Shown here in pieces: positions 8,795 through 34,135 of a stretch of DNA of 36,149 bases. Each line of letters opens with the position of its first letter. The stretch's first letter is position 1. The position numbers and the translations under genes are program-made. Below the pieces are notes generated by a model, which saw only the letters and a program-made list of their open reading frames with translations, made no database searches and was not told the origin of the DNA. Source of the stretch: Vermamoeba vermiformis (taxonomy: Eukaryota); the NCBI GenBank assembly GCA_045837725.1, contig JBEWZL010000233.1, positions 62,001 to 98,149 on the forward strand. The letters are read 5' to 3'.

Positions 8795-9079
8795 ATATTT
8801 AAGTTTTACAGGTTACATAAATTTGCCTTATGTGGGCATTTTAATTTAGTTGACGTCAGTTACTTTAAGCAGACTTTGTTTTTGCGACGTCCGTGATATG
8901 TTGGACCAGCATCAATTCGTGGGTAGCTGCCGCAACGCTAAAGAGATTCTGCCCGCAACGACTCAAAATTCTAAATTTGCCCAAGGTCGGGCGGGCAAAA
9001 CCATGTTGGGCGAATCTTTTGCAAATATTTCTCTACTCGAATCAGCGCAATCGAGCATTAGCTTATTATTAGTGACAAC

Positions 9080-10269
9080 ATGAAGAATCCCCTGTTTGTA
9101 TTATTGATGGTGATACTGAGCACCACGTTTGCTGCAGTATATTACGTCGATCAAGAACAAGGAAACGACCTATCAGATGGAACCAGCGTTGCTACTGCTT
9201 GGAAAACCTTACCTGGCGATCCCGCAGTGGATTTGACCTCCGAACCCGGAAAGCGATTTACCACCGGATATACAGCTGGCGACAGATTTTATCTCAAAAG
9301 AGGCTCAATTTACTATGGAAACTGGTTGTTTAACAACAATTGGAGCGGAACAGTTGATGCTCCTTTATTTATTGGATCAGCTCCGGCAGACATCGACTTT
9401 GGTCCTCCAAATACCAAAGCTATTATGGATGGATCTATTGCCATTACTGGTTGGGTGCCTATCGATCAATCTGAAGCATCAGAGAACAGCAATTGGGCTC
9501 ATTTCGTGAAGTTCACTTTGAACCAAGATTACGATCCGGCCGTTCACCTCTACTGCGACAGTCAAATGATGTATGGTTCTCAAGCCAAGCCAACGGAAGA
9601 TATGTTCGATTTTGAAAGAATAGATTTCTCCGCATTCGATATCGACCCTGCATATGGAACGTTTTGGGAGTTTACGACAGGCAATTACTCGGCTGGTGGA
9701 GTCGTTCGTTTTGTGGATGATAGAATCAACAATCTTACAACAACCAGCCTTATCAATACCTATGCTAATATGCGAGTCTTTGGCAATTTATACCGAACTT
9801 TCCTGATCATAGACGATAAAATTGTCAACGGCAAACGATCATTATTCTTGCAATGGCCAGCTGGTGTCAACCCGCCGGTAGATGTTGGACTTAGCTATTT
9901 TAGATGGACTCTCTCTCATCATCCCACTTTCATGGATCGTCCTGGAACTTTTTCAGTGAAACCTGACGGAAGAACTTTAATTGCATGGTTTCCGTGTCCA
10001 GTAGCAAACGCTAGAATTACCAGCTTACTCTCTGGAATCGACATGCGTGGAGCTGACAACGTGGTCATCGACAGTGTCATACTGCGCGTCTGCCAGTGCC
10101 AACTCCTGAAGCAATCCCTACTGCTATCGGCGTTCCAAACTCTCCAACAGCCCCCAACGCAATCCCAAGTTCATCTGCCCCTCAAGAGAATGTGACTTCG
10201 GGAACGGACAAAACTGTTGCAAGAAAGTTTGCGTACTTTGTAATAGCATTCTTCCTGTATTTCGTTTAA
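9080..10269 (+). CDS. Secreted right-handed beta-helix (pectin-lyase-fold-like) protein; C-terminal region frameshifted or deleted, possible pseudogene
   Basis: Signal peptide, YYVDQEQGNDLSDGTSVATAWKTL, GDRFYLKRGSIY and GIDMRGADNVVIDSVILR, typical of bacterial-type beta-helix proteins. Main ORF stops at 10195; a P/S/T-rich linker plus hydrophobic tail lies in another frame ending TAA 10267-10269. Confidence 0.65.
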
Positions 10270-12485: not shown

Positions 12486-15400
12486 TTATTTGTCGGGCAC
12501 AAAGCTGTCACCGCGCAGAGTCGTGAACAGCTGTGTACTGCGCAGTGACGGCACATCAAGGCTGCTCTGACTCGTGTTCGGTGTGGGTGCCAGGGTCGCT
12601 AGCTGCCAGACACAAATTGCGCGATCTAACTCGCGCCCACCCGTCCACATCTCGTTCTCATTGGTCTGTATAATCGTGCGCACACCGTCTTTGTGGCGGT
12701 CCTTCAGCTCTTGAATGAACTCCAACTTCTTCGCGTCCCAGATGACAATTTCTTTGGTCCACATGCCACTGCTCGAAGTTAGTGTCTGCACTCGTTTGTG
12801 ACACCTGTCATTCGGTGACACCTGTCATTCACGTACCTCCACACTTGGCTGCGACTAGGCACAGAGGTGAGACTCAAACACTTGCCGGGGCAGTCTATCT
12901 TCTTCACCAACTTGCGCGTCTAAAAGTGCTGAATTAGAATCGCTGTCAGATCACTCGCGACCAGTACCTCTGCATCGTGAATCAGAATGTAATCATTGCT
13001 CGCGGACCAGATCTTGTTGTCTTCAGCAATCACTGCGTTGATGAGACTACGGATGCGTGAATATCGAAGTCAATTAACGGTTGACGGTGCCACTTACCCC
13101 TTGTGTCCCTTGACTGTTTCCACAATGTCGTGTGTCTGTCACGATAACATTACTATCGCACTGCACTCATTAGGACTGACATGCGCTACTCACATCCAGA
13201 TTGATCACGAACAGATCACCATCGACCGAGCCTGCCCAAATGAAGTTGATGCACTGGCACATGGCACTCACCCCCTGCGGCACTCTGATGCGGCCCTTCT
13301 CTTTGTAGCTCTGTCCCTAGTGTCAGCACTGCACTGCGCTGCTACCACGAGCTTACCTGTGTGTCCCAGATGATGATCAGACCCTCCACACAGCTGGCAG
13401 TCCACACGTCGTGACGAGGACCGCTGCCACTGTCCTCTTCGTCGAACAGAGCACTGCTAATGACACGTGTCAAACACCGATTCACACCGCACAGCTAACA
13501 CTTACTCGGGCTGCGGACCATTGATGCGTCCTCGCTCTTTGCGCATCTTGACGACAGTCATCTTGGACTTGGAGCGCGGCGAGGACAATTTCATCAGCTT
13601 GAGCATGTCGAGCTCTTCGTCGCTCTGCAGGGGCTTGTTGTTGACGAGGATCATCGCTTTGATGACCTCTTTCTCGGCATTCAGTGTCTGCACCACGGCC
13701 ACTTTCTGCTTGTCGATCACGTGCACGGTGTGCAGACCACTCGAGCACCAGACTGTGCCCTCCACTTCGAGCAGCACGTACACTCTGTCGCGCACAATGG
13801 GTACCTCTTTCAAGCACGTGTATTTCTGTGCAGTGCGCGGTGAGTGCGTGCAGTGAGATCGTTGTGCAGCGTTACCTTGGAGTCCCACAGCTGCACGGCA
13901 CCGTTGCCGAGTCCAGTCCACACCAGTCCCTCGCGGTCACGCAGCAGCACTTGCACCGAGTCGCTGGGCCCTTGCAGTGGTCCTCCGCCGTCTTGACCGC
14001 GCATCACTCGCTGGAAATCTGCCACGCGACGACTGACCTTGCCGACTAGTGACACGTGTCAGCAGTAGTTCTTGTGGAGCTATCACTTACATTGCGAGGG
14101 CAGTGTGGCATTCACGGTGAGCACTGCTTGCGCGACACTGGCCGCGAACTTCTTGGCCTCGTCGGTGGACTTGAGCTTGAACTGCCACCGCTTCTTGTCG
14201 GGTCCGATCAGCGTCACTAAGAGCTGGTCCTCTGCAACGATGGTCAGTCACGCGATCTGGTTTCAGTGAATATGTAATTCCGCACCGTTGAGCTCGACTT
14301 GACTGTTGGCGAGTGGCACGGTGTGTTTGATGTTGTACTTGTCGAACAGCACGTCCTTGCTGGTGAGCAGCAGCATGTCACTGAACAGCACGTGATGATA
14401 TTCTAAAAATACATCGCGACCTTTCTCTTTTTGGATCAAAAATAGGCCGCCACGTGACACGAGCGACCGTTGCGGCACAATCAGGTCCTAAAAATAGAAC
14501 ATTAACTCCCACACCTGATGAAGCACGGTACGCACTTTGATGGGTGGATCGAGCTGTTTGGCCACGTGCAACATGTCACGCGAGCTGTCAAACTCCTTCT
14601 TGCGCGAGTTGATCAGATCCGCAATCTCTTTGATGCGCGTGAGTGCTTGGCTGATCAGCGGGTAGTCTTTGTGCTCGGGCTGCGTGTGCTTCTGCAGCGT
14701 TTGCAGCAACAGCACGTAGCGCGGAATACTATATTTGGAAAGCGTTAGAATACGTGCCAGCAGTGTGTTCAGTGAACGGCATACCGCTGAATGGGCTGAA
14801 TTAGCAGCGACTGCAGCTTGTTGTCGTCGAGATCTTGCGCCTGACACGTGTCAAAGTGTTAGTTGTCAAGTGTCAAACACTGCACTGCATCGCTTACCTT
14901 GAGAAATTTCGCAAAGACATCATTATTCCGCACTTTTTCAATCACTTTGAGCGCGTTGTCAAAGTTGTTAACGTACTGGATATATACCTTGAGGAATTCG
15001 GTCTGAAAATGTGACACGTGTCATTCACTGACTTGCACTGAGACTACTGATTGACACGTACCATGTTAATAAATATCTGACCGATGCATTGATCGATATT
15101 CCATTTCCTAATTTGGGTTTGCAGCTGTGCGAGCAGTGACTCGTTGACACCAACAATAACTGCAAAGATTAATGATCAGAGCCATGTCTAAATATAGTAA
15201 CTTGCCTTTGATCTGCGAGAAGATCTTTTTGACATCTTCGGGATTCAGTGAACGGCTCTGCATCGCTTCAGCCAAGAGTGGATCGTACAACTTCTGCAGA
15301 CACAGTGCTGTTAATACAGGCCCCACAATATATATAGGGTGCATATATAGATATAAGTGTACCTCAGACATGTATTTGAGGTTGGTCACGTAGTACTCTT

Positions 15401-15756
15401 CAGTGCTCACAATCTCCTTGGCGACGTGCGTGCGTGTCTTAAGATCTTTGTACTTGCGGCGCGCATTGAAGGTCAGTACCATAGCCTGCGCCAATATCAC
15501 TGTTTTGCGTCGATGCATGAACACCTTGCACGCGTGTGAGATGATCTCGCCTGCATTCTAGAAACAGAAGCGAAATTGAATATTGGGTTAAATAATTAAT
15601 ATTAACGATTATTCGCAGTTATCAGCACTGCATATTAGCTAAATAATATATTTTCATAATTAAATGCGCCATAAGAGAATATCCTACCTGCAACTTAACC
15701 ATCTCACTCTGCAGCAGATGTGCAGTCTTCTTGCCCGTAATCTTTGCTCGACTCAT
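12486..15756 (-). CDS. RhoGEF (IQ-like helix, DH, PH) with C-terminal WD40-like beta-propeller
   Basis: RTHVAKEIVSTEEYYVTNL, IPRYVLLLQTLQKHTQPEHKDY, IADLIN (DH); HVLFSDMLLLT (PH); VWTGLGNGAVQLWD, IVIWDAK, MWTGG..AICVWQ (propeller). Many short introns; start Met tentative. Confidence 0.88.
12798..12830. repeat. Tandem 16-bp duplication GTGACACCTGTCATTC in the last RhoGEF intron
   Basis: Identical copies at 12798-12813 and 12815-12830. Confidence 0.9.
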
Positions 15757-16264
15757 CGAGTAATAAATAAATATTAAGGAACTGTACACTATGATACAAA
15801 TATCTGCTATATTACAACTGAAAATGCTGTGCTGATTTTCACGCAAAAAATGCAACTGAAACGACGGCCACAAAATCTTTGCGCCACTCACGAGCACCGC
15901 ACAACTAAGACAAGTACACATAACACCACTAGCACCGACAAAATATATTGCGCTCGATATTTCAGACTGACACGATAGACCTTGTAGGCCGTATTAGCTG
16001 ACCAAATATTGCATCCGGCTCCAACGATTAAAAACAAATAATTAATTTTCTAATATTTCAATAATTATATAACCACCGTAAATATAAGAGAAACATTCAA
16101 TGGAATAAGATTGGCCCTGAATGAGCCCTGAATTAAAATTGCCCTGATGAGCTTCCAGGGCCCTCGCAGGGTCTTGTTTGTTTTGCTTCTCGTCCGCAGC
16201 CTCAGTTATTCGTATTTTCTGTATTTATAAACCACCACGTCTCATTATTAGTCGCTGAGTAATA

Positions 16265-18205
16265 ATGGAGAAAGACGAAGCGGCTACAACTCAAATCCCC
16301 ATTCCCGCCGAGGAGCAGACAGAACCGAATTCACCGAAGGGAGACGATACTAGCTCGTCTAAATTTAATGAGAACTGGTATTTAACTGCTTTCTGAGCCT
16401 ACATCCGCTAACTAGGTCTTTCATTGCAGGAGGAAGGATCCAAACGCGCGCAAACTGATTGTTATGATATGTCTTACCTATCTCTTCCTTGTCGTAGAGC
16501 TTGCCGTGGGGATTATTACTGGTAAGCAGTATTTGGTGCACTGAATTTCTGAGAGTTTCATCTGGATTCAGAATTTGGAAATTGAATTCAATTTCAAAGT
16601 CCTCCTCGTATTTCACCATTATTGACTTATCCTAACAATACTGTCAATTTTAGGCTCTTTGGCACTTGTCAGTGATGCGTTTCACATGCTGTCAGATGGT
16701 ATCGCGCTGATCATCGCACTTCTTTCATTAATCGTAAGTCTAACGCAACTTCCATATCTCTTTTCAATAATACTCGGCATATGAATTCATTGCCCTATTT
16801 TCTTGCAGTACACGAAGCGCAAACAAAGTGGCAAGTTCTCATATGGCTGGGGTCGATCTGAAATTATTGGAGGACTAATCAACGGCATCTTTCTCATCTC
16901 GACATGTCTCTACATTACTATAGAGGCCATACAACGCTTCATCGAGATTACAGTCGTCCATGATCCGCTGCTCGTCGTGTGGGTTGGCCTTGGAGGTCTG
17001 GGCGTGAATCTGATCGGCATGTTCATGTTCATCGGTGACTCGGGCATGCATCACCACCACCACGGGCACAGTCACGGACACGGACACGGACATGGACACG
17101 GACATAAGCACAAACACAAACACAAGCACCACAAGGAGGACTCCGTCACTGCCCTGGAAGAGGGTACTTCCAAATCAGGCAGTGGCACCAGCAGTCCAGA
17201 CCACGAGCACTCAGACCATTCAGACCACTCCGATCACTCCGATCACTCCGATCACGAGCACAACGCCAAGAAGCAGAAGAAAAAAGCCTCGAAGAACATC
17301 CGCGCCGTGTTCCTGCACTTGCTGGGCGATGCACTGGGCTCAATAGGCGCCATTCTCTCTGGCCTCGCCATCTACTTCTTCACCTTTCAAGAGCGCTACT
17401 ACTTCGACCCTGCAGTCTCTATTCTCATCGTCGCGCTGATCCTTCGCAGCAGCATTCCACTGGGTAAGTGACACGTGTCAAACTGTGACCTGTACGCTAA
17501 TCACATGATCGTTGCAGTGCGCAGTTGCATCACCATTCTGATGCAGACTGTGCCGCGCACATTGCAACTCGATGAACTGCGCGCTGAACTCGCTGGGGTA
17601 CGTGATTGCCATATTAGGCAATAGACTGCGACTGACCGTGTTTGCAGGTGTCAGGTGTGGTGAAGGTCCACGAACTGCACGTGTGGTCGCTGATCGACGA
17701 CAAGCTGATCAGCAGTGTGCACGTGTTGTGTCTCAAAGAGGCCAATTTCATGAAAATAGCCGCAGCGATGAAGGACGTGTTTCACCGCTACAACATTCAC
17801 AGCTCCACCATTCAGCCCGAGTACGTCAGCAAGAAGAAACTCGCCGAGGTAATTGCCGTCCTCCTGATATACCCTCGTAGACTGACACCCTATGCTCAGA
17901 ACAAAGTGCTCGAGTGTCGCTTTGGCTGCAATGCGGAGTGCGCGCCAGAGAACGCGTGTTGTCCGAAAGAAGTCGAGATACTCACTGACGAGGGTAAGCA
18001 CTGCAACCACTGCCATGGGCTGTGTACTCACTCGCCTTGTCGTACAGATGTCACGTCTATCCTCTTGAGATCTGGTACTAAGAAGGATGGCCTCAAACGA
18101 CGCAAGAAACATGGCAGATCTCGATCCAAATCCGTTAAAAATGAAGAGACTGAGATGGTCAGTTCGATACCCAAGTCTCCGAAAGTGGAGCGATATGACA
18201 GTTAG
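16265..18205 (+). CDS. Cation diffusion facilitator zinc transporter (ZnT1/SLC30, Zrc1/Cot1-like)
   Basis: SLALVSDAFHMLSD, FSYGWGRSEIIGGLING, His-rich loop, NIRAVFLHLLGDALGS, VHELHVWSL, IHSSTIQPE, Cys-rich tail; HD/HD zinc-site motifs intact. Confidence 0.95.
17049..17262 (+). repeat. Coding microsatellites encoding the His-rich loop: (CACGGA)n, (CACAAA)n, (CACTCCGAT)n
   Basis: Tandem units directly visible, translating to HHHHHGHSHGHGHGHGHGHKHKHKHKHH and (HSD)5. Confidence 0.9.
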
Positions 18206-18430
18206 TAGATATTGTACTCTGGTTGCATGTAAATAGGTCCGTTTCTAAAAATAGTAATGTCGAATTTGTTGAATCAAAAAAGATTCGTACACACCATCAA
18301 GTGCGATTTGATTCACGCGCAGCGCAACACGACCGCGATTAATAGCTCGTTATTGAATATAGCAACAATATTCGGCTATTGTGGTATCGAGCTCTTATTC
18401 AATACAACGGTCAAAGTGCACATCTGACAA

Positions 18431-20327
18431 ATGGACCCGACAACGAGGGTAAGAAATAATTAAGATAAAGTGCCTTAAGATCACAATATCACGTATAATA
18501 TTTTTACTTGTTGTACCTGAATGCTTTACGCTTTTACGCTCCCATCTGATAATTATTTTGTTTAGCTCGAGGGTTTCCTTTTGAAGCGAGGAAAAGGTAA
18601 ATATGGCCACACTATAATACCAATACGCAGGATTTAACGCTAGAATGCAGTTGCTCGCGGTTGGAAGAAGAGATGGTTTCAATTGGGAGACCGAGACTTC
18701 TCACGGCTGTATTATTCTGAAGAGAAAAACTCCGAAAAATTAGGTTATATTGGTAAGTAGTTGTATTCTTGCGAATCAGACCACAATTTGTACTGCAAGC
18801 TCGGATTAGCTCCGCAGAGACTTTGCCGCTCCAGTGGTTACATTCCCTAACTGACGCATTCTACGACTAGACCTAAAGGTGTCTGAAGTGCGCGCGAGCA
18901 AGGCAGACAGTTTTGTGATTGAAATTAGCAATGCAGATCGCACCTTTCAGCTCCAAGCCGCGAATGAAGTGCAGTTCCAGTCGTGGTACGAGTTCTTGCG
19001 TCGATGCACGCGCGAGGCCTCGAGCAACACTGAGCCACTGCACCAAGAGATCAAGCGTCTGCTGCGCGTGATACACGAGCTGAGTGAAGAGCGGCGTCTG
19101 GCCCTCGAACTGACCAATCGCCTGAACGAAGAGCTGGCCGGTGTGACGGGCCGATTGAACGAGCAGTTGAGCGCGGCCAACAGACGCATCGCTGCACTCG
19201 AGAGCGAGAACGCACAGCTGCGCCGCGCACAGGGCTTGGAGGTCAGTGCGGCGGTGTCAGTGCCACTCAGTTCAGTGAACGAGACACCAGAGACCAATCA
19301 CAGCACCACGCACAGTCCCGCGCGACCAGTGCGACCAGTGCAAGCCGTGAATACCAACAACGCGTTCCGTGCCTCGATGCGCAAGACACTGCGCCGCACA
19401 CTGGAGCTGAAGCGCGATGAGATGCGCATGGCGAGCAAACAACGTCTGCTGGACATTGAAAGCGAAGTGGAGCTGTTGTTGGAAGAGCTGAATCTGCTGC
19501 ACGACATTGACGGGGACGATGCGGAGTTGAGTGACAGCGAGGACACGATGGACGTGCCTAGCGGTACTGACAGCGCGACTACCACTGACAGCCTGACCAA
19601 CAACACCACTGCCAGTGACGAGCAGAGTGACGAGCGCAAGTTGAAGAAGTCCTCGTCTGAAATGAACTTGAAAGAGCTCAAACACCGCGTGCAGTCCAGT
19701 TCACATCAGACTGCTGCAATCGTGGACATTTTGCACGAACGAGCTGCGACTGTCGTGCAACAAGCACAGGCTGAGGCGAGTGACCCCAAGCAACAGACAC
19801 GTGACAATACGAATGCACCTGACAGCACTCAGTGTGACAGCACTGAGAGCGGCACTAGCGCGAGTGTCAACAACACCAATGTAGACAGCACTACATCGGA
19901 GAGTACTGCACAGCACATTGAACGGCCCAAGTCACTCGATCACGTGACCACTCACTCGAGTGACAGCGAGGACCACTCGTCCACACAGCGCGACAGTACC
20001 CCTGCCAGTGAACAGCACACGGGCCACAAGTCCCTCGCTGAGCCCTACAGACAGCGTATTGACAGTCAAGCCCCCGGCAAGGAGTACGTTGCAGCACGTG
20101 TCAAATCAGCGCGCACACAGTGGCTGACACGTGACAGCATGACCAACGGCCAGCCTGGCGAGCTCAAACCCAAAGTGCCCTTGAAGCGCATTGACACAGC
20201 GCCCAGCGGTCACTCGTTTGTGCGCGGTGTGCCACGTGCCAACACGAAGACCCCAGCCCTTGCCCTGAACAGTCCGCGCGGTGTCAATCAACCAGTGGTC
20301 ACACCGAGCATGTTGGAGGACAAGTGA
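18431..20327 (+). CDS. PH-domain protein with coiled coil and long S/T-rich disordered tail
   Basis: Small exons MDPTTR|LEGFLLKRGK|VARGWKKRWFQL..LYYSE..KLGYI|DL..RTFQLQAANEVQFQSWYEFL give a canonical PH domain; heptad-rich region follows. Confidence 0.85.
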
Positions 20328-20583
20328 GCGGATCTGCGTGTATTCTTTTGTAGTATATTGTACTATTAGCCACCATTTTGAAAGTAAAATCAACTAAGCG
20401 AAATGAGTACGAGGTGCTTCATAATTAATGTTATTAGTGCCCAGTCTGGCCACTCGTGTTGATTCACAGAATTTCGTTCCGTTTCGCGCACAGAATTCCA
20501 AACTCCTGCACCAACAGCGAACAACAACTCTGAACAGCAGTACAAGACATCATTTGCGTAGTGTAATGCGATAGTAGTATTCA

Positions 20584-22123
20584 ATGGGTAAGACAACACA
20601 TTGCACAAACGGCACGCCGAGTTAATTTCCTTAAAAAATATCAAGCGACCGAAGCTAAATTAACTCCTTTGCAACACTTCTTGTGTGGGTCGATGGCACG
20701 CATGGCAGGTAAATAAAATATATTCCGATTTATTTAGAATTATTTGCAATTAATTTTCCACCCGAAATTGAGTTCACCCTCGTTAAATGATAATGGCTAT
20801 AATACAGCTATTTATTCGACACTATAATTAACCTCTCCCACTACTAGACGCGGTGATCATGTGTCCAGGTCAGTACTTGTCCCCCTCTCCCCAGTGCACT
20901 AACCGCACCGCTAGCCGACACGATCAAAACACGGCTGCAGTTCCAAGGCACGCTGCAGCACGTGAAGCACTACAACAACTTCTTTCACGCCTTCACCGTC
21001 ATCCTGCGCGAGGAGGGCGTCAGAGGATTCACCCGCGGACTGCCCGCACGACTCACTTACGTCACCCCTGCTGCGGGTAAGTGTTTGACACGTGTCACTC
21101 AGACGCAAGCACGTGATTGACACGCGTTGACAGGCATCAGCTTTCTGTGCTACGAGAAATTAATTTCAGCGCTCAAAAAACCCAAGGTATACCGCGAATT
21201 TACCAAGCCCTGGTGGATGATTGGTGCTGACACTGACCTCTGTTTGACACCTGTCAGGGCGAGCAACGACTGTGGCTGGACAAAGTGCTGCCCTTTGTCG
21301 GCATTGCCAGTGCGCGTGTGATGGGCACGACACTCAGAACTCCGTTTGACATTGTGAAGCAGCGCATGCAGGCACGAGTCACCGATTGACACGTGTCACC
21401 CGCTCAGTACTAATCGCTGACTTGACAGGTGCAAGACTCGATTCAGAACGTTGCCAAATATAGAAGTTCCATGGCTGCCGCGAGTGCCATCGTGAAGCAG
21501 TTCGGGTACCGCACGCTGGGCCAGTCCATCTTTGTGGCACTCTGCCGCGACGCACCATTTGCAGCGGTGGTAAGTGTCACGTGGAGTGTTGGTCGCAGGC
21601 ACTAATTGACACGTGTCACTCGCAGTACTTCTTCACGTACGAGGTCGCGAAGAGGACGCAGAGTGAACTGATTGGTCGCGACAAGATGGGGCTGGCCAAT
21701 CACCTCTTGGCAGGGGCTGCGGCAGGGGCGAGTGGCGCACTGGTCACCGCACCCATGGATGTCGTCAAGACGCGCTTGCAGACTGAAGTGAGTTTGCCGC
21801 GCGATCAGCGACGCTACAAGGTGAGTACCTTTATATAATTGGAGTATAGTACGCAGTGCCCTATTAACGTCGTGCAGGGTCCCATCCACGCACTGCGCAC
21901 GATTGCACGCGACGAGGGCATGCGAGGGCTGTACCGCGGACTGGGGGCACGGCTGTTGTATTTGAGTACGTGCTGTGTGCTGTCTGACACTGCTCGTGTC
22001 ACGTGATTGACTGTTCTATTTTTAGCTCCGTCTGCGGCACTGGTCTGGGGATTTTATGAAAGCTTTAAACGCGGATTTTTGTACATTAATAACCGTAGTG
22101 GTGCAGTAAATACCAAGAGCTAG
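20584..22123 (+). CDS. Mitochondrial carrier (SLC25) protein; substrate uncertain (SAM-carrier/mitoferrin-like)
   Basis: Three signature motifs after splicing: PADTIKTRLQ, PFDIVKQRMQVQ, PMDVVKTRLQ; EEGVRGFTRG and DEGMRGLYRG. The start relies on a 4-nt coding first exon (ATGG). Confidence 0.9.
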
Positions 22124-22275
22124 TCTCACCCTTATCAATTAATTGCTCGTCTGTTGACTTGATCACGTGACTCCTGGGAGATTTCGCGTCGCGTGGTCTT
22201 TTTGTTCAAAGATCCGAACAATTCCACAGCAGTTCAGTAGTTGAAGATTGAACAGAAGATAACCACACATCACAT

Positions 22276-23933
22276 ATGCAGTCTTTAATTACCTCAGTCA
22301 GCAGAACCCTCATGCAGAGGACAAACAGAGCTGTCGCGCGGAGTTTGACAAGCAACAGATCCACGCGCAACAAGCTGACTAATTCGTTGTTTAATATTAG
22401 CAAAGTATCATATTCAACTGCCACTACAACCAGTAAGTTATTGCACTCAATTAAAATTGAATAAAAATAAGGAAAAAAATTACAAAAATACTAATAATAA
22501 TTTGTTTCTCAGCACAAAACAGCAATGCATTCGCGGGCATTAAGTTCACCAAGAATGAATCTGCTATTCAGACCGCTAAGAAGGTCAAAGGCGTGGAATT
22601 GTTGGGCAGATCTATTTACCTCGACATGCAAGCTACAACACCCGTAGATCCGCGTGTATTAGACGCTATGTTGCCGTACTATACGGAACAATTCGGCAAT
22701 CCTCATTCGCGCACGCATCTCTATGGCTGGGAGAACGAAGAGGCTGTGGAACAAGCGCGCGAGGTAAGTCGAGCTCGGATCCAAAGAGAAAAAAAGAGAA
22801 AAAAAGAATAGCTGCCATAACCATTATACATATGGATTAATTGTCTAAACGGAGAATTAATGCATTACATTCAACAGCAAGTCGCCAAGCTGATCGGAGC
22901 GGATCCGAAAGAGATCGTGTTCACGAGCGGTGCCACCGAGTCAAACAACATTGCCATAAAAGGAGTTGCGCGCTTTTACAAAGACAAGAAGCCCCACGTG
23001 ATCACCACCGTGCTGGAACACAAGTGCGTGCTGGATTCGTGTCGCGCGCTGGAGAAAGAAGGCTTTCAAGTGACGTACTTGCCCGTGCAGAGCGACGGAC
23101 TGCTCGACTTGAATGTGCTCGAAGCTGCGCTCAAGTCGCGTCCTGACACTGCTGTCGTGAGTGTCATGGCTGTCAACAACGAGATTGGCTCGGTGCAGCC
23201 CCTGGCCGCGATTGGTCAGTTGTGTCGCAAGTACGGCGCATTCTTTCACACCGATGCTGCACAAGCTGCTGGCAAAGTGCCACTCGACGTGAATGCGATG
23301 AACATTGATCTGATGAGCATCTCGGGACACAAGCTCTACGGGCCCAAAGGTGTCGGGGCACTCTACGTGCGTCGCAAGCCGCGAGTGCGCATTGAAGCGG
23401 TGCAGTCGGGCGGTGGTCAAGAGCGCGGCATCAGATCTGGCACTGTGCCCACGCAACTCGCCGTGGGACTCGGTGCTGCCGCTAGAATTGCGCGCGAAGA
23501 GTTCGAGAACGACAGCAAGCACGTGAAGATGTTGTGGGACAGGCTCTACCAGGGCATCAAGTCGCGCATCAGCCACGTGACGGTGAATGGTTCGCTCGAG
23601 CACCGCTACTACGGCAATCTCAACGTGTCCTTCGCGTACGTGGAGGGTGAGTCACTCATGCTGGGCCTCAAGGACATTGCCTGCAGCAGTGGCAGTGCGT
23701 GCACCAGTGCCAGTCTCGAACCCTCGTACGTGTTGCGTGCCCTCGGTGTCGACGATGAGATGGCGCACAGCTCCATTCGCTTCGGCATTGGTCGCTTCAC
23801 CACCAAAGAGGAGATTGACTACGCACTGGATCTGGTCACGCGCGAAGTGAACAGATTGCGCGAGATGAGTCCATTGTGGGACATGGTGCAAGAGGGCATT
23901 GATTTGAAGACCATTCAGTGGGCTCAGCACTAA
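22276..23933 (+). CDS. NFS1: Mitochondrial cysteine desulfurase
   Basis: Arg/Ser-rich presequence, [38 protein letters not shown] (PLP lysine), SSGSACTS (catalytic Cys), [10 protein letters not shown]; two introns. Confidence 0.97.
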
Positions 23934-24288
23934 TCAGATCCGTTGTATTTCTGAGAAACTTGTACATAGTAATGATAAAGCTATTTCGCAAACTGCAGTG
24001 ATGGTCACTTGGAAATAAGGCAGTAGTAGTATACAACAAGTTTACATTTTACATGGTTATGTACAAAATTGTTTTTCAAGCGGATCTGCTCCGCTCCAGA
24101 TACCGGCCAGGGATGAGCTGCGGGGTGACACTAGTGACTAGTACATAGTCATGTATCACCCTTCATATACGAGCTACTGTTTGCATCAGCTGGACAGGGG
24201 TGACTCGTCCTAAACAGCACGTGCAAGCTCAAGAACACAAGTCACTCGCGCAAGTCTCCAAATGACACCTGTCACTCGTGTCAGTCCT

Positions 24289-25690
24289 TCAAATGACAGC
24301 CTGTTCTGCGCGCTGTTTGATGACATCTGTCAAGCTGTGAAAGACAGTGTCAATGTTCGAGGTGTCAATAGTGCAGGTCACGTAGTTCACCATGTTGCTG
24401 CCGCGGTACAGACTGCTAAATTTGGTCTTGATGAATTCCAGCGAATTCTCCCAGTCCCCAGGGCCTTGAAATTCACTGAAATGTGTTGACAGCGGTGCAT
24501 TGGGCAGCTTGGCCTTGAAGACATCGAGTTTGTTGTAGAACACAATGAGCAGCGTGTTCTGAAACAGCTTGGAGGTGCCAATCTCTTGAAACAGTTCCAA
24601 CGACTCCTGCATCCGATTCACGCGCTCGTCTTCCACCAGCTTCATGTCGTCTAGCTACGGTCAGCACGGCGAGGAGTTAGCGCATGGGACTTACATTCGT
24701 TGAGCGCGACAAAGTAGATGATGGCCAACACATCTTCAAAGCAGTTGAGCCACTTGCGTCGTTCACTGCGCTGTCCACCCACATCCACAATGACAAAGTC
24801 CACGCCCTCGTAGTTGAACGACACCTCTGTGATGCCTGTAGTCTTCTGTCGCGCGTGTAAGATGTCATCTACCGACGGTGCGTAGTCATCGCGATATATT
24901 CGATCGAGATTTTGTAAGAAACTAAGCGAAGAGTTAGATCGGATCTGACCGTTACAAATAACAGTTGTTTGCGTACTAGTCTGCGGAGGGCTCTATTTGA
25001 TATTCATTGCGCCTACCCCACGTCTCTTGAATGCCGCTGTCTTGCCACACGCGTTTCATGGGCTCTACTAGTTCGATCGACAGACTGCTTGCTTCCAAGA
25101 TGCGCAAACAATCCGTCTATAATGCAACACATTCAATAAATATGACTAGTTTAAGCACATTACTGACCTTGATTTTGGACGAGACTTTGATCTTGAGTTG
25201 TGTAGCAGCCCGAATCAGCTGTTGAGCGACCGTGAGCGAGAGATTTTGAATCAATTCGCGATAGTTATCGAGCTCTTGCTTCTTAAAGCCATTCAAAAAC
25301 AAGATTTTCATCTGTTTTAAAAATGTACTCTTGCCGGATTCACCAGTGCCTTAAATAATAAGCTTACATTAATTATGTGTACCAATGCAAATTAATGTCT
25401 ATCATTGTAATGAGAATGTGTGATCGTAGTAGCCTATAGAGCGTTGATAAACAAAGACTAAGCGAGCATTAATAATTAACGGCAATTTTATCAAAATATT
25501 GAATTAAATTAATCGATTAATGCTGCACACGCATCGATTGATACTGCACGCAATTATATGTCGCATACGTACCTAGTAACAGCAGTTTAGCGTGTAATTT
25601 CCGGTCTTGCCGCTCTCGTCGCAGCGAATCGTCGATCGCCTTGGCTTTTTCGCGGTCAGCTTTATTGTCACCTGCCGCGCAGCACCACAT
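24289..25690 (-). CDS. Heterotrimeric G protein alpha subunit
   Basis: MWCC..., [69 protein letters not shown]. Confidence 0.95.
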
Positions 25691-30254: not shown

Positions 30255-31651
30255 TCACTTTGACCACGTGATTTTAATGTCAGCCACGCAATGTTCTATT
30301 TTGGGCGCATAGTTCTTGACTGACACGAACTCCACCAATTGACACGTGCCAATGCCGCGCCTGTCGTGCCACTGTTTGACAGCTGCAAACACCTCGCTGA
30401 ATCCAATGCCAAATTTGGCATCGCACTCCTCCGCGGAGGTCACTGCACACTGACCAATCACACGCGCGTCAGGTATTTGATGCGGGCCTGCGAGGTGATG
30501 ATAGTGCACGATCACGCCCGTTGGATCTGCAAAGAACATGGCGCGGTTTAAAAATGGCGCGGTCTCGGGCAAATAACCCATCAGAATGCGCTGCGCACGT
30601 GCCTCGTATTCGTTGCAGACCTCTGTGCAGGTGTCAGTCACATGTGACATGGTTCTGCGGCATAATAACAGTGTACTGACCTCTGTTGTCGCCGAGCACT
30701 GGCGTCACAATCTCCGTCACGTGATTCAACTTGACATTTTCGGACAAATAGCGGAATGAATTTGGATTCTTTTCGATGGCAATCAGCTTGTGTAGTTTAC
30801 CATATTTGGCAAGTGGCAACGTGAAGTAACCAATGCCTGCAAACATGTCAATAGCGAGTTCAGGTGCCTCGTTGACACGTGTCGTAAGGTGTGCGAATCG
30901 AATTCTTTCCGCACTGTTGCCCATGGAGTACATCACGTGACTGACATCTAATTTGTACTGTCGCGACTGGTCAGTGATCGCTGTTGCCATATATAGTAAT
31001 GTGCCGTACCTGCACGCCATTCTCCACGTGCACTGTGGTCGTGGCTGGTTCGTTGTCTGTCACGTGACTCCACAGCAGTCGCACGTGCTTTGGATCGGGG
31101 GTGCGGAGCTCTCCTCCGATACCTCGCCCACGTGATTCGACGACGATCGATCGGAGCTTGTATTGTCCAAAATAGGTTAAAAAGGCCTGTGCAATGTCTT
31201 GCAATCTTTGCAGTTGTGTTTCATCGTGCTGTTCGCGCTCAATGTCACGTGACATGAGAGTGAACAGTAAAATATCTCCCAGCAATCTCCAGTGCAATAA
31301 TTTCGGCAAAGAATGCAATTCTTCTTCACTCCATCGCGCTGACTTGCCTAATTCGGCAGTCACGTGCCTCAACCACGGTGCGAGACCGTCTTTATCGCCC
31401 TGTTGGGCAGTTTTCTTCGTTTTGAAGCTATTTTTAGCGACCAATCGCACGTCATGCAAGCTTTGCAGTTGTTCATCGGTCAGATCCTCGCGCAGTGGCA
31501 GTGCATTGATCTCAGTGCCATCAAGTGTCACCGTTGCTGGTCTATAAATGGGGTGGTCTATTTTTAGTGCTTTCAAGTGTTGCAGTTGTGTTTTGATCTG
31601 CTCTTTTTGCTGCACCACCACACAGCGGATCTGTTCTGTGGTTTCGTTCAT
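30255..31651 (-). CDS. TYW2: tRNA wybutosine-synthesising protein 2 (aminocarboxypropyltransferase, Trm5/TYW2 family)
   Basis: VHVENGVQ|YKLDVSHVMYSMGNSAERIR, DMFAGIGYFTLP, EKNPNSFRYL, GDNR|EVC, RILMGYLP, VKNYAP..HCVADI; two introns. Confidence 0.85.
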
Positions 31652-32539: not shown

Positions 32540-34135
32540 TCACTTGGGCGCGTGATGACCCGCGAACAGACACGAGTACCGCACCAGCCGTTGAATCAGC
32601 TCGGCTTTGCTGCCTTTTATGGAAGCACCGGTGTACTGCGCCAATCTCGCTTTGATCTCGGGCAGTGACAGCAGTGACAGCGAACTCAAGTCGAGCGGTG
32701 GTGTGTCACGTGACTGGTGCGCGACCTGCGCGAGTTCTTTGTGCGCCAAGTACGACTCTTGTTCCGAGCGATCGTCCTCGAACAGCGCGGTCAGGGACTC
32801 GTTGTGCTTGTCACGTGACACTGACCAGGGCTGTGCTGTCTCGTTGGTGTCTTGTTCTGCAAAGATGAACGGTGCGTTGTCCGGCACGTGACCAGGCACG
32901 TGACTGTGGAACAAGGACAAGTGGCGGAACAATCGCTGCACGAGCTGTGGCTTGGTGCCCTTGGTGCTCAAGCGATATCTGCGCGGAGATATTCGTCAGT
33001 GTACTGCAAAGGGGATTGCCTTATATGGCAATGTTGTTGGGGACGTACCTTTTGAGCTCCGTCTTCAGCTCGGGCAATTTCATGCTGGCAATCTCGTTCA
33101 AATCTCTTCGCTTGACAGGTGTCACGCGCTGATCAGTCACGTGATTGGTCACGTGGTCAGTGTGCTGCGTCCAGTACGGTGTCACGTGCGGGGGATAGAG
33201 CTGCGCGGGGGCGGAGAACGTGACATCGACGGGCAACACCGCGGACAAATCGGAAATTCCCGAGGGATCAGTCACGTGACTCGTGTCGTAGTCGTGCTCG
33301 GAATAATTCAGCACGTGACTGTCGGACTCGTGCGAGTGGAAGAATTCGCTCGTCTCGACCACGTTGTACAGCCCTGGCACCATGCCAGTGCTCGCAGCGG
33401 TGTTAGTGTTGTACGAGCCAGGTGCAGTGCTGTGAGTGGTAGTGTGGTACGAGTCGCGTGCAGTGACTATGGCACTAGCACTGGGCAAGAGGTGGTGTTT
33501 GACCGCAGCTTGATCTTGTTGCTCTTTCTCGGAGTCAAACAGCGTGTCGTCGATGCTCATCAAGTCCTGGAGGAATATTGGTAAATATGAGGGCAATGAT
33601 ATTGGATTATTGACAGAAAGAGCAGGATAATAAATTCTTTGGTACTAATAGCGAGGATATTTGTTGATCGGACAATTCTTGATATTTTTTTATAAGAAAA
33701 ATTACCATCTTTTTCTAGCCGTAAGCAAATTTGATTTTTAATTTGTTTCATAATATATAATATTTGTGCAATTTTATGTTTCAAAAACTGAATATTCCGA
33801 TCTAATTCCCAAAGTTTCAAATAAAATTAATCTACACTTACATCCTCAGCAATAGGCCAAGATGATTGATCAACGGTCGATTTCACATAATTTTCGTAGC
33901 AATATCCGCACACTAAGCCACCAAGCTCGATAGTCGTGTTCAAAGTCTTGTTGATGCGGTCGCGCACTTGAGCATCTATCAACTTGGCTTGGGCCAAGTC
34001 AGGAATTATATACAAACATATAGTACAATAGTTGAAGTGGTTGTTACTGTCGTCAGTGTATTCAGTCTCGCGAAACAATTCTTGAAACTGTTGCCAATCG
34101 GCGGGGGGCGCATTCGATGAGAGCTCGAATGACAT
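32540..34135 (-). CDS. Nuclear-type protein with N-terminal CxxC...CxxC zinc-binding module and two SAP domains
   Basis: Exon 1 34135-33842 (CTIC...VCGYC) ends at GTAAGT and joins in phase to 33566. SAP motifs MKLPELKTELKR|YRLSTKGTKPQLVQRL and LSLPEIKARLAQYTGASIKGSKAELIQRL. The 3' end is less certain. Confidence 0.75.

Follow-up and report, generated by a model that had tools for sequence, protein, structure and literature searches.

A recurrent 12-bp palindrome in short introns of three neighbouring genes of Vermamoeba vermiformis as a putative dimer-binding site

The 36,149-nt stretch of Vermamoeba vermiformis DNA considered here (contig JBEWZL010000233.1 of assembly GCA_045837725.1, positions 62,001 to 98,149; called the window below, with its first letter as position 1) contains a perfect 12-bp palindrome, TGACACGTGTCA, which recurs in introns of a RhoGEF, a zinc-transporter, and a mitochondrial-carrier gene. 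Pfam scans of all open frames of at least 70 residues (85 + 86 frames) give the gene order as an F-box gene (minus strand) and a PARP gene (plus), followed by the RhoGEF gene with WD40-like parts (minus, ∼12.5–15.8 kb), the cation-efflux zinc transporter (plus, 16.4–18.2 kb), an open frame of 490 residues without a Pfam family (plus), the mitochondrial carrier (plus, 20.5–22.1 kb), a class-V aminotransferase/cysteine desulfurase (plus), a G-alpha gene (minus), a methionine aminopeptidase (plus), a RhoGAP-SH3 gene (plus), TRM5 (minus), and a SAP-domain gene (minus). The three genes that bear the motif are unrelated neighbours and lie on both strands.

Eight exact copies of the palindrome are present in the window, starting at 13461, 14050, 14842, 15012, 17469, 21086, 21387, and 21607, and every one of 100 dinucleotide-preserving shuffles contained 0 matches. 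A centre variant, TGACACCTGTCA (or its complement), occurs five times, at 12799, 12816, 21245, 24263, and, on the opposite strand, 33113. The more general pattern TGACANNTGTCA (TGACA-N2-TGTCA) is matched 14 times, against 0.08 expected in shuffles. Markov models trained on positions 12501–36149 themselves predict between 0.0014 (order 0) and 0.097 (order 4) copies of the 12-mer, and since even the fourth-order expectation stands against eight observed copies, lower-order composition cannot account for the counts. This was the check that the initial annotation had named for its own claim, and when run within the window it ruled composition out. The same annotation had counted the same eight copies, four in the RhoGEF, one in the zinc-transporter, and three in the carrier gene, a tally that is correct, and its chance expectation of about 0.002 agrees with the order-0 estimate obtained here; its variant sites at 12799, 12816, 21245, and 24263 were all recovered, while the fifth, at 33113 on the other strand, is absent from it. 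The recurrence of the motif is therefore real. The 14 matches are as follows.

12799..12810, variant TGACACCTGTCA (TGACAGGTGTCA in transcript sense), RhoGEF intron 12772-12836, minus-strand gene; followed 17 nt on by a second copy
12816..12827, variant, second copy in the same intron 12772-12836 of the minus-strand RhoGEF gene; 9 nt from the 5' splice site and within a 17-nt tandem duplication
13461..13472, exact copy, RhoGEF intron 13457-13505 (49 nt), minus-strand gene; 4 nt from the 3' splice site
14050..14061, exact copy, RhoGEF intron 14046-14090 (45 nt), minus-strand gene; 4 nt from the 3' splice site, with CTGAC as the sole YTRAY candidate
14842..14853, exact copy, RhoGEF intron 14841-14897 (57 nt), minus-strand gene; its final A doubles as that of the 3' AG
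15012..15023, exact copy, RhoGEF intron 15003-15061 (59 nt), minus-strand gene; 9 nt from the 3' splice site
17469..17480, exact copy, intron 17464-17517 (54 nt) of the zinc transporter (cation efflux family), plus-strand gene; runs from intron position 6, directly after GTAAG
21086..21097, exact copy, mitochondrial-carrier intron 21077-21133 (57 nt), plus-strand gene; 9 nt from the 5' splice site
21245..21256, variant TGACACCTGTCA, carrier intron 21187-21257 (71 nt), plus-strand gene; its final A doubles as that of the 3' AG
21387..21398, exact copy, carrier intron 21372-21428 (57 nt, GC-AG), plus-strand gene; 15 nt from the 5' end
21607..21618, exact copy, carrier intron 21570-21625 (56 nt), plus-strand gene; 7 nt from the 3' splice site, in an intron with an end-to-end fold (z −2.7)
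24263..24274, variant, non-intronic; starts 14 nt past the stop codon of the minus-strand G-alpha gene, probably in its 3' untranslated region
33113..33124, variant, non-intronic; ends 29 nt short of the start ATG in the minus-strand SAP-domain gene; a CACGTG cluster lies just upstream of this copy in gene sense
24321..24332, TGACATCTGTCA with a TC centre, in the C-terminus of the minus-strand G-alpha gene; the sole TGACA-N2-TGTCA match in coding sequence

The coding match at 24321..24332 probably stands outside the motif set. The placement of the 24263 copy just downstream of the G-alpha stop had been noticed from the start, and the distance of 14 nt bears it out.

All eight exact copies and three of the five variants lie within ten introns of 45–71 nt in the RhoGEF, zinc-transporter, and mitochondrial-carrier genes, and under uniform placement the confinement of eight out of eight exact copies to introns has a probability of ∼3e-8. 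Behind this estimate stand 64 curated introns that together cover 4132 nt (11.4% of the window); the set was assembled from region- and strand-restricted gene-finder runs with manual checks, and 15 of its members have listed splice joints. The joints come from transcript-like contigs of a run designated X7, presumably an RNA run, which match the window at 99+% identity but lack GT..AG stretches; the 15 joints listed, out of 44, comprise seven in PARP, six in the carrier, and two in the desulfurase gene, and none of those listed falls in the RhoGEF or zinc-transporter gene. Three motif introns are removed in these contigs, namely 21077-21133 (joint 21075/21133, resolving to GT..AG with the cut shifted by +1), 21187-21257 (joint 21184/21256, cut +2), and 21372-21428 (joint 21368/21426, which slides by up to four places and resolves to GC..AG). 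The other seven are supported by splice consensus and a restored reading frame; for example, removal of 21570-21625 gives back a carrier-like reading frame, and the RhoGEF intron chain, including 14232-14285, follows from reading-frame continuity and splice consensus. One X7 piece stops at 17462, adjoining the donor of the zinc-transporter intron 17464-17517. With three motif introns seen spliced and seven supported by reading frame and splice consensus, the intronic assignment that the initial annotation had given to the eight exact copies is correct.

Two features of the host genes were noted in passing. The carrier gene contains a 21-nt micro-exon (20848-20868) between introns 20709-20847 and 20869-20914, which is seen in the transcript-like contigs. 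In the RhoGEF intron 12772-12836, a possible tandem acceptor lies at 12769-12772 (GAG then CAG, 3 nt apart), and two reads from a related strain join 12767 to 12837, apparently using the downstream CAG. A strain 95–99% alike is represented in runs X21–X23.

Within the introns, the copies keep close to the ends. The motif lies 1–9 nt from the 3' splice site in six introns and 5–15 nt from the 5' splice site in four. No placement is thus further than 15 nt from an end of its intron, which has a joint probability of 0.016 for a threshold that was set after seeing the data. Two copies provide the A of the 3' AG, and another starts at intron position 6 after GTAAG. In the six 3'-proximal copies, the TGAC of the motif lies 10–18 nt from the 3' end of the intron and is preceded by a pyrimidine in five and by an A in the sixth, and a match to the branch-point consensus YTRAY is found in five of the six, at distances of 13, 13, 10, 10, and 16 nt, for which a branch-point role is predicted from sequence. 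The introns 13457-13505 and 14046-14090 are the two in which the motif holds the only YTRAY candidate; in the former this is TTGAC, the sole candidate 8–35 nt from the 3' end. The nearest YTRAY in the non-motif introns lies 9–34 nt from the 3' end in 42 of 54 introns, with a median of 16. The four introns with 5'-proximal copies possess distinct branch-point candidates, such as the CTAAT located 17 nt from the 3' end of intron 17464-17517. The earlier remark that copies overlap a branch-point-like YTGAC or abut the 3' AG thus describes six introns.

These placements could be produced by a signal at the RNA level, in which the first half of the palindrome would serve as an extended branch point and the second half would pair with it or with GUGUCA/UGACAC elsewhere, so that the motif would bridge or mask splice signals or mark the intron for a splicing or retention regulator. 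In addition to the branch-point-like positions and the copies that merge with the 3' AG or follow the 5' splice site, this explanation would fit the location of all 13 non-coding copies in probably transcribed positions and the word composition of the introns, where TGACAC is among the most enriched sense 6-mers (17 vs 2.5 expected) and GTGTCA has 13 copies, mostly within the 12-mers; after subtraction of the 12-mer copies, stand-alone TGACAC remains sense-biased, with eight copies vs three of GTGTCA. Furthermore, the introns starting at 15003, 21077, and 21570 fold end to end (z −1.5 to −2.7), and the copy at 15012..15023 could form 8–9 bp with ACGTGTCA after the 5' GT of the same intron. However, such end-to-end folding is seen in just three of the ten introns, a loopless palindrome cannot fold on itself, and spaced, hairpin-like versions of the motif are not enriched (0–2 each for k ≥ 3). 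The four 5'-proximal copies, in introns with branch-point candidates of their own, are likewise not expected from an RNA-level signal, and neither are the clustering of the copies and their orientation-independent flanks. An extra TGACA(C/G) half-site is found in seven of the ten motif introns, in 10 of the 36 other introns of the right part of the window (12.5–36 kb), and in one of the 18 introns of the left part; because one spliceosome must serve both parts, the motif is no general splicing requirement. An RNA-level signal is accordingly regarded as unlikely, and the pure splicing signal that the initial annotation had offered as one option leaves three things unexplained, namely the regional clustering, the direction-independent flanks, and the four copies by the 5' splice site. 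Mirtron-like hairpin introns were also considered as a class and rejected, because only three of the ten motif introns fold end to end and the mean z of the class is no lower than −0.91.

The architecture of the motif is rigid. When TGACA-Nk-TGTCA is counted for every spacing, 14 matches are found at k = 2 and 0–2 at each other k from 0 to 30, against 0.19 expected per spacing. The ten half-site letters are identical in all 14 copies, and the centre alone varies (CG in eight, CC/GG in five, and TC in one), giving an E-box core of CACGTG in eight copies, CACCTG/CAGGTG in five, and CATCTG in one. All eight palindromes end at exactly 12 nt in the alignment, and none runs on into its flanks. The flanks themselves are weakly alike, with 6.45 matches of 20 vs 5.00 in shuffled flanks (12 copies, the tandem duplicate at 12816 being dropped). 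This likeness shows no excess within genes over that between genes (permutation p 0.89, 13 copies) and is not tied to transcript sense, since the all-sense assignment ranks 847 of 2048 possible orientation assignments. In front of the CACGTG core, TGA is found at 16 of 24 intronic half-sites, while the 102 half-sites of the window's other 51 CACGTG sites most often have T (43) or G (31) before the core; the differing flank sets the intronic 12-mer apart, as a flank class, from the TCACGTGA-type class of promoter-like and coding DNA.

Exact repeats confined to introns also bring to mind a mobile element, either a relic or an active form associated with introns (an introner, introner-like element, or miniature inverted-repeat transposable element), of which the palindrome would be a terminal or transposase-binding repeat spread by local transposition. 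Introners and introner-like elements have been described in Micromonas, Aureococcus, fungi, and dinoflagellates (PMC9860276; PMC12130899; PMC7789003), and those of fungi and Amoebophrya form stable folds with end-to-end inverted repeats, of 8–20 nt in Amoebophrya (PMC7789003). The motif introns resemble them in carrying a repeat specific to introns at positions in unrelated genes, in either orientation relative to transcription, with hairpin potential, and in genes that are partly intron-dense, two of the three adjacent hosts being so (RhoGEF with 16 introns, carrier with nine). The proximity of the copies to intron ends is in line with such an origin, as are the more stable folding of the motif introns (mean z −0.91, n = 10, vs +0.11, n = 47; p 0.008), their slightly longer end-to-end inverted repeats (3–8 vs 3–7 nt, p 0.02, with one intron reaching 8), and the single diagnostic change common to the five variant copies, which is reminiscent of a subfamily. 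Introners share similarity over most of the intron and usually have terminal inverted repeats and short direct repeats at their boundaries, whereas the introns studied here share 12 nt and weak flanks, the two arms of the palindrome abut without internal sequence, and boundary repeats are not seen.

The quantitative comparisons agree with this difference. With the splice sites and the 12-mer masked, an all-vs-all local alignment of the 64 introns has a mean score of 6.95 vs 6.43 for shuffled introns and a 95th percentile of 10 vs 9, and the top pair of motif introns reaches 14 vs a null maximum of 16. Splice boundaries can slide by 1.80 nt in the ten motif introns vs 1.35 nt in the 54 others (p 0.35), and the flanks of copies are no closer within a gene than between genes, as given above. 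At only ∼12–25 nt, the common unit falls below the size of any known transposon. Removing the 12-mer would reduce two host introns to 33 and 37 nt, below the minimum of 40 in the set, and this explanation does not account for the exonic enrichment of the same words, given below. From the lack of whole-length similarity and of target-site-like repeats it follows that, among the 64 introns of this one window, the motif introns are not classical introners. An intron-generating element, the third option of the initial annotation, is therefore unsupported, since masking leaves the introns no closer to one another than their shuffled versions and target-site-like repeats are missing from their boundaries; overall, a mobile element is judged improbable as the source of the motif. 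Similarly, the symmetrical stwintrons of Hypoxylaceae fungi are proliferated introns with an internal dyad and no flanking duplications, for which a mechanism other than DNA transposition has been suggested (PMC8469720), and the motif introns are like them in these respects. Stwintrons differ in having terminal inverted repeats of 45–55 nt and high similarity over their whole length (PMC8469720), whereas the symmetry here spans 12 nt and the rest of the introns is unrelated.

The open frame of 490 residues that lies between the zinc-transporter and carrier genes was examined as a possible DNA-binding or transposase gene and set aside, as it has no Pfam match and its translation, judged by eye, consists of a coiled coil followed by a serine/threonine-rich region. 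A metagenome scan with this frame gave no match. The metagenome scan with the cysteine desulfurase returned at least 80 loci, with identities of at most 72% among the matches listed and no close relative. The best named relative of the desulfurase is that of Planoprotostelium fungivorum (75% identity), and further top named matches, among fungi, are from dictyostelids, Arcella, and Balamuthia, which makes an amoebozoan host most likely. The G-alpha exon had no match in viral or prokaryote-genome collections, and no Rfam family was found in the window.

The motif is also unevenly distributed along the window. It is present in 10 of the 32 introns at 12.7–22.03 kb vs none of the 32 introns elsewhere (Fisher p 0.00085), and PARP, with 14 predicted introns (13 curated), has none with the motif. 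Related words are enriched over a larger domain. At 12.5–36 kb, CACGTG occurs 60 times vs 6–14 expected (orders 0–2), and at 1–12.5 kb three times vs ∼3. Right-part exons contain CACGTG 22 times vs 7.8 in synonymous-codon shuffles (standard deviation 2.0, maximum 14 in 500 shuffles), and half-site words exceed the same kind of shuffles on both strands (TGACAG 13 vs 2.9, CTGTCA 9 vs 1.9, TTGACA 10 vs 2.9, and GACACG 11 vs 3.0). Exonic CACGTG sites show no nearness to splice sites (median distance 47 vs 53 nt). Palindromic k-mers in general are in excess over block shuffles at 12.5–36 kb (6-mers 518 vs 393, 8-mers 148 vs 102, and 10-mers 49 vs 25), and no such excess is seen at 1–12.5 kb (6-mers 200 vs 207, 8-mers 51 vs 53, and 10-mers 14 vs 14).

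A regional mutational or repair bias that makes short perfect palindromes, for example by template switching on quasi-palindromes, could explain this domain, and with intronic TGACAC as its seed it would yield the 12-mers as functionless products. The restriction of the palindromic excess to 12.5–36 kb and of the CACGTG excess to the same part, together with the enrichment of further palindromes such as AGATCT in exons (10 vs 1.3), is what such a bias would predict. It would not be expected to produce a single spacing class with invariant half-sites, eight palindromes that are all exactly 12 nt long, or the same non-palindromic variant five times, and the intronic motif is limited to 12.7–22 kb while the palindrome-rich domain reaches 36 kb. 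Such a bias is consequently considered very unlikely to be the origin of the motif.

Several observations on the same region concern other words. A sharp compositional boundary lies at 12500/12501, and the introns to its left are AT-rich with mostly CTAAC/CTAAT-type branch-point candidates. AGATCT is the top outlier in right-part exons relative to synonymous-codon shuffles (z 8.3), above CACGTG, and GATCTG and CAGATC are likewise enriched there. Dense clusters of TCACGTGA/GTCACGTGAC-type boxes occupy 30934-31361, 32707-32897, and 33138-33317 (seven, four, and five CACGTG sites, respectively), the last of which lies 55–235 nt upstream of the SAP-gene ATG and the other two inside the TRM5 and SAP open frames; the window holds five copies of GTCACGTGAC and 11 of TCACGTGA, and these boxes belong to a classical class of bHLH-ZIP-type sites that differs from the intronic 12-mer. 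Another word, the A/T-rich and dyad-like CTATTTTTAG or its complement, is present eight times (14488, 18245, 22016, 28581, 29562, 30135, 31428, and 31558), with four copies intronic in sense and two more directly past stop codons, and the copies at 14488 and 22016 form the 3' splice site as GTTCTATTTTTAG. The last carrier intron, 21966-22025, which ends in GTTCTATTTTTAG, also holds TGACAC and GTGTCA 5 nt apart, a hairpin-like form of the 12-mer, and a GTCACGTGA box. In the left part, a 377-residue open frame at 9062-10192 lacks a Pfam family, and its depth in the X7 contigs is zero, while its neighbours are covered.

The reading that we tentatively prefer, although we would put its chance clearly below even, is that the 12-mer is a putative homodimer binding site at the DNA level that was seeded on branch-point-like half-sites. 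In this proposal, a homodimeric sequence-specific protein would read, on double-stranded DNA, a rigid dyad-symmetric site composed of two inverted TGACA(C>G) half-sites with fixed spacing and an E-box centre, in the geometry of a TALE-homeodomain dimer. The short introns would already hold one half-site as a branch-point or 3' splice-site signal (YTGACAC, TGACAG), so that the mirror half alone would be needed, and coding sequence would be unable to hold the full 12-mer; the restriction to introns would follow from these two circumstances. The outcome would be a homotypic cluster of about a dozen sites in a 9-kb neighbourhood of three genes, inside the word-enriched domain at 12.5–36 kb. The rigid dyad, the direction-independent flanks, the copies in untranslated-region-like positions (a probable 3' untranslated region and just upstream of an ATG), the exonic enrichment of the words on both strands, and the clustering are as a homodimeric DNA-binding protein would produce them. 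Among the three options of the initial annotation, its chromatin signal in gene bodies fits these data best, with the binding itself still putative. What the data show is the enrichment of the motif, its restriction to introns, its rigid spacing and invariant half-sites, the overlap with the branch-point consensus, the clustering, and the excess of the words in exons; that a protein binds, which one it might be, and whether it would act in gene-body regulation, chromatin marking, or coupling to splicing are inferred.

Known dimer sites offer partial parallels. The CACGTG palindrome, the E-box or G-box, is a dimer site of bHLH or bZIP proteins. The motif carries this core in eight copies, and its variants still conform to CANNTG, as the initial annotation had recognised for the core, and it differs in its flank class from the other CACGTG sites of the window. 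The TGIF1 homeodomain has been crystallised on 5'-ATTGACAGCTGTCAAT-3', a canonical site bound by two homeodomains (PMC6158717), and the inverted TGACA half-sites, the 2-bp spacer, and often a T before the half-site are the same here. TALE homeobox factors have been reported in Entamoeba, so the family exists in Amoebozoa (PMC11586516). The suggested likeness to a TALE dimer site thus stands for half-sites and spacing and fails at the central dinucleotide, which is CG or CC/GG in place of GC. On the splicing side, the fused branch-point/3' splice-site motifs of intron-poor protists (PMC2483917) are comparable in that YTGAC lies 10–18 nt from the 3' splice site and sometimes extends into the AG. 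They differ in that four copies here are at the 5' end, they contain nothing equivalent to the second half of the palindrome, and most introns of the window are motif-free. The motif is a full match to none of these systems, whether introners, stwintrons, TALE or E-box sites, or branch-point motifs.

Against a homodimer site on DNA, several points must be weighed. The motif overlaps splice signals and sits near intron ends, which points to a link with splicing, and none of the eight exact copies is intergenic, though the neighbourhood offers intergenic DNA. That the copies are so exact agrees with copying or RNA pairing as well as with binding, and real sets of transcription-factor sites usually show degeneracy; none of the curated introns holds a copy with a mismatch in a half-site, and the three remaining one-mismatch matches (20125, 30340, and 30873) lie in coding open frames outside them. 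The more stable folding of the motif introns also counts here. The likeness to the TGIF1 site is one of sequence, with a different centre and a setting in introns instead of promoters, and everything reported here comes from one 36-kb window.

The 12-mer and its 10-mers were searched in full-text literature and were met only in primers, plant promoter boxes, and unrelated uses, and the literature on Amoebozoa introners, palindromes of short introns, and Vermamoeba introns describes no such motif, the supplements of introner papers being outside the scope of the search. Within that scope, we found no description of the motif in an intronic context. A scan of viral contigs with the motif carrying a GTT prefix gave 27 single matches, consistent with chance. 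In four tailed-phage contigs of IMG/VR (L087, L096, L097, and L098, typed by major capsid protein E and tail proteins with Pfam/PHROGs), two or three palindromes of 14–16 nt each are centred on the same 12-mer and lie at gene ends, overlapping or directly past stop codons; these look like a phage intergenic repeat unrelated to the amoeba.

Introns of 45–70 nt have room for little beyond splice signals, yet about one-third of those in a 9-kb neighbourhood of this genome carry one and the same 12-bp palindrome, which overlaps these signals. It is conceivable, if doubtful, that the motif represents an intron mark in Amoebozoa, either a dyad that shares its first half with the branch point and is bound by a dimer at the ends of a selected subset of such introns, thereby coupling a gene-body factor to splice-site or branch-point choice or to retention throughout a neighbourhood of several genes, or a minimal palindromic module that was copied into introns by non-transpositional means. 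Should proteins dock on the motif, it would provide a natural example of a DNA-level factor positioned at intron ends, in which the coupling of chromatin and splicing could be studied in a compact genome; should it be a copied module, introners would no longer mark the limit of the known routes to new or remodelled introns.

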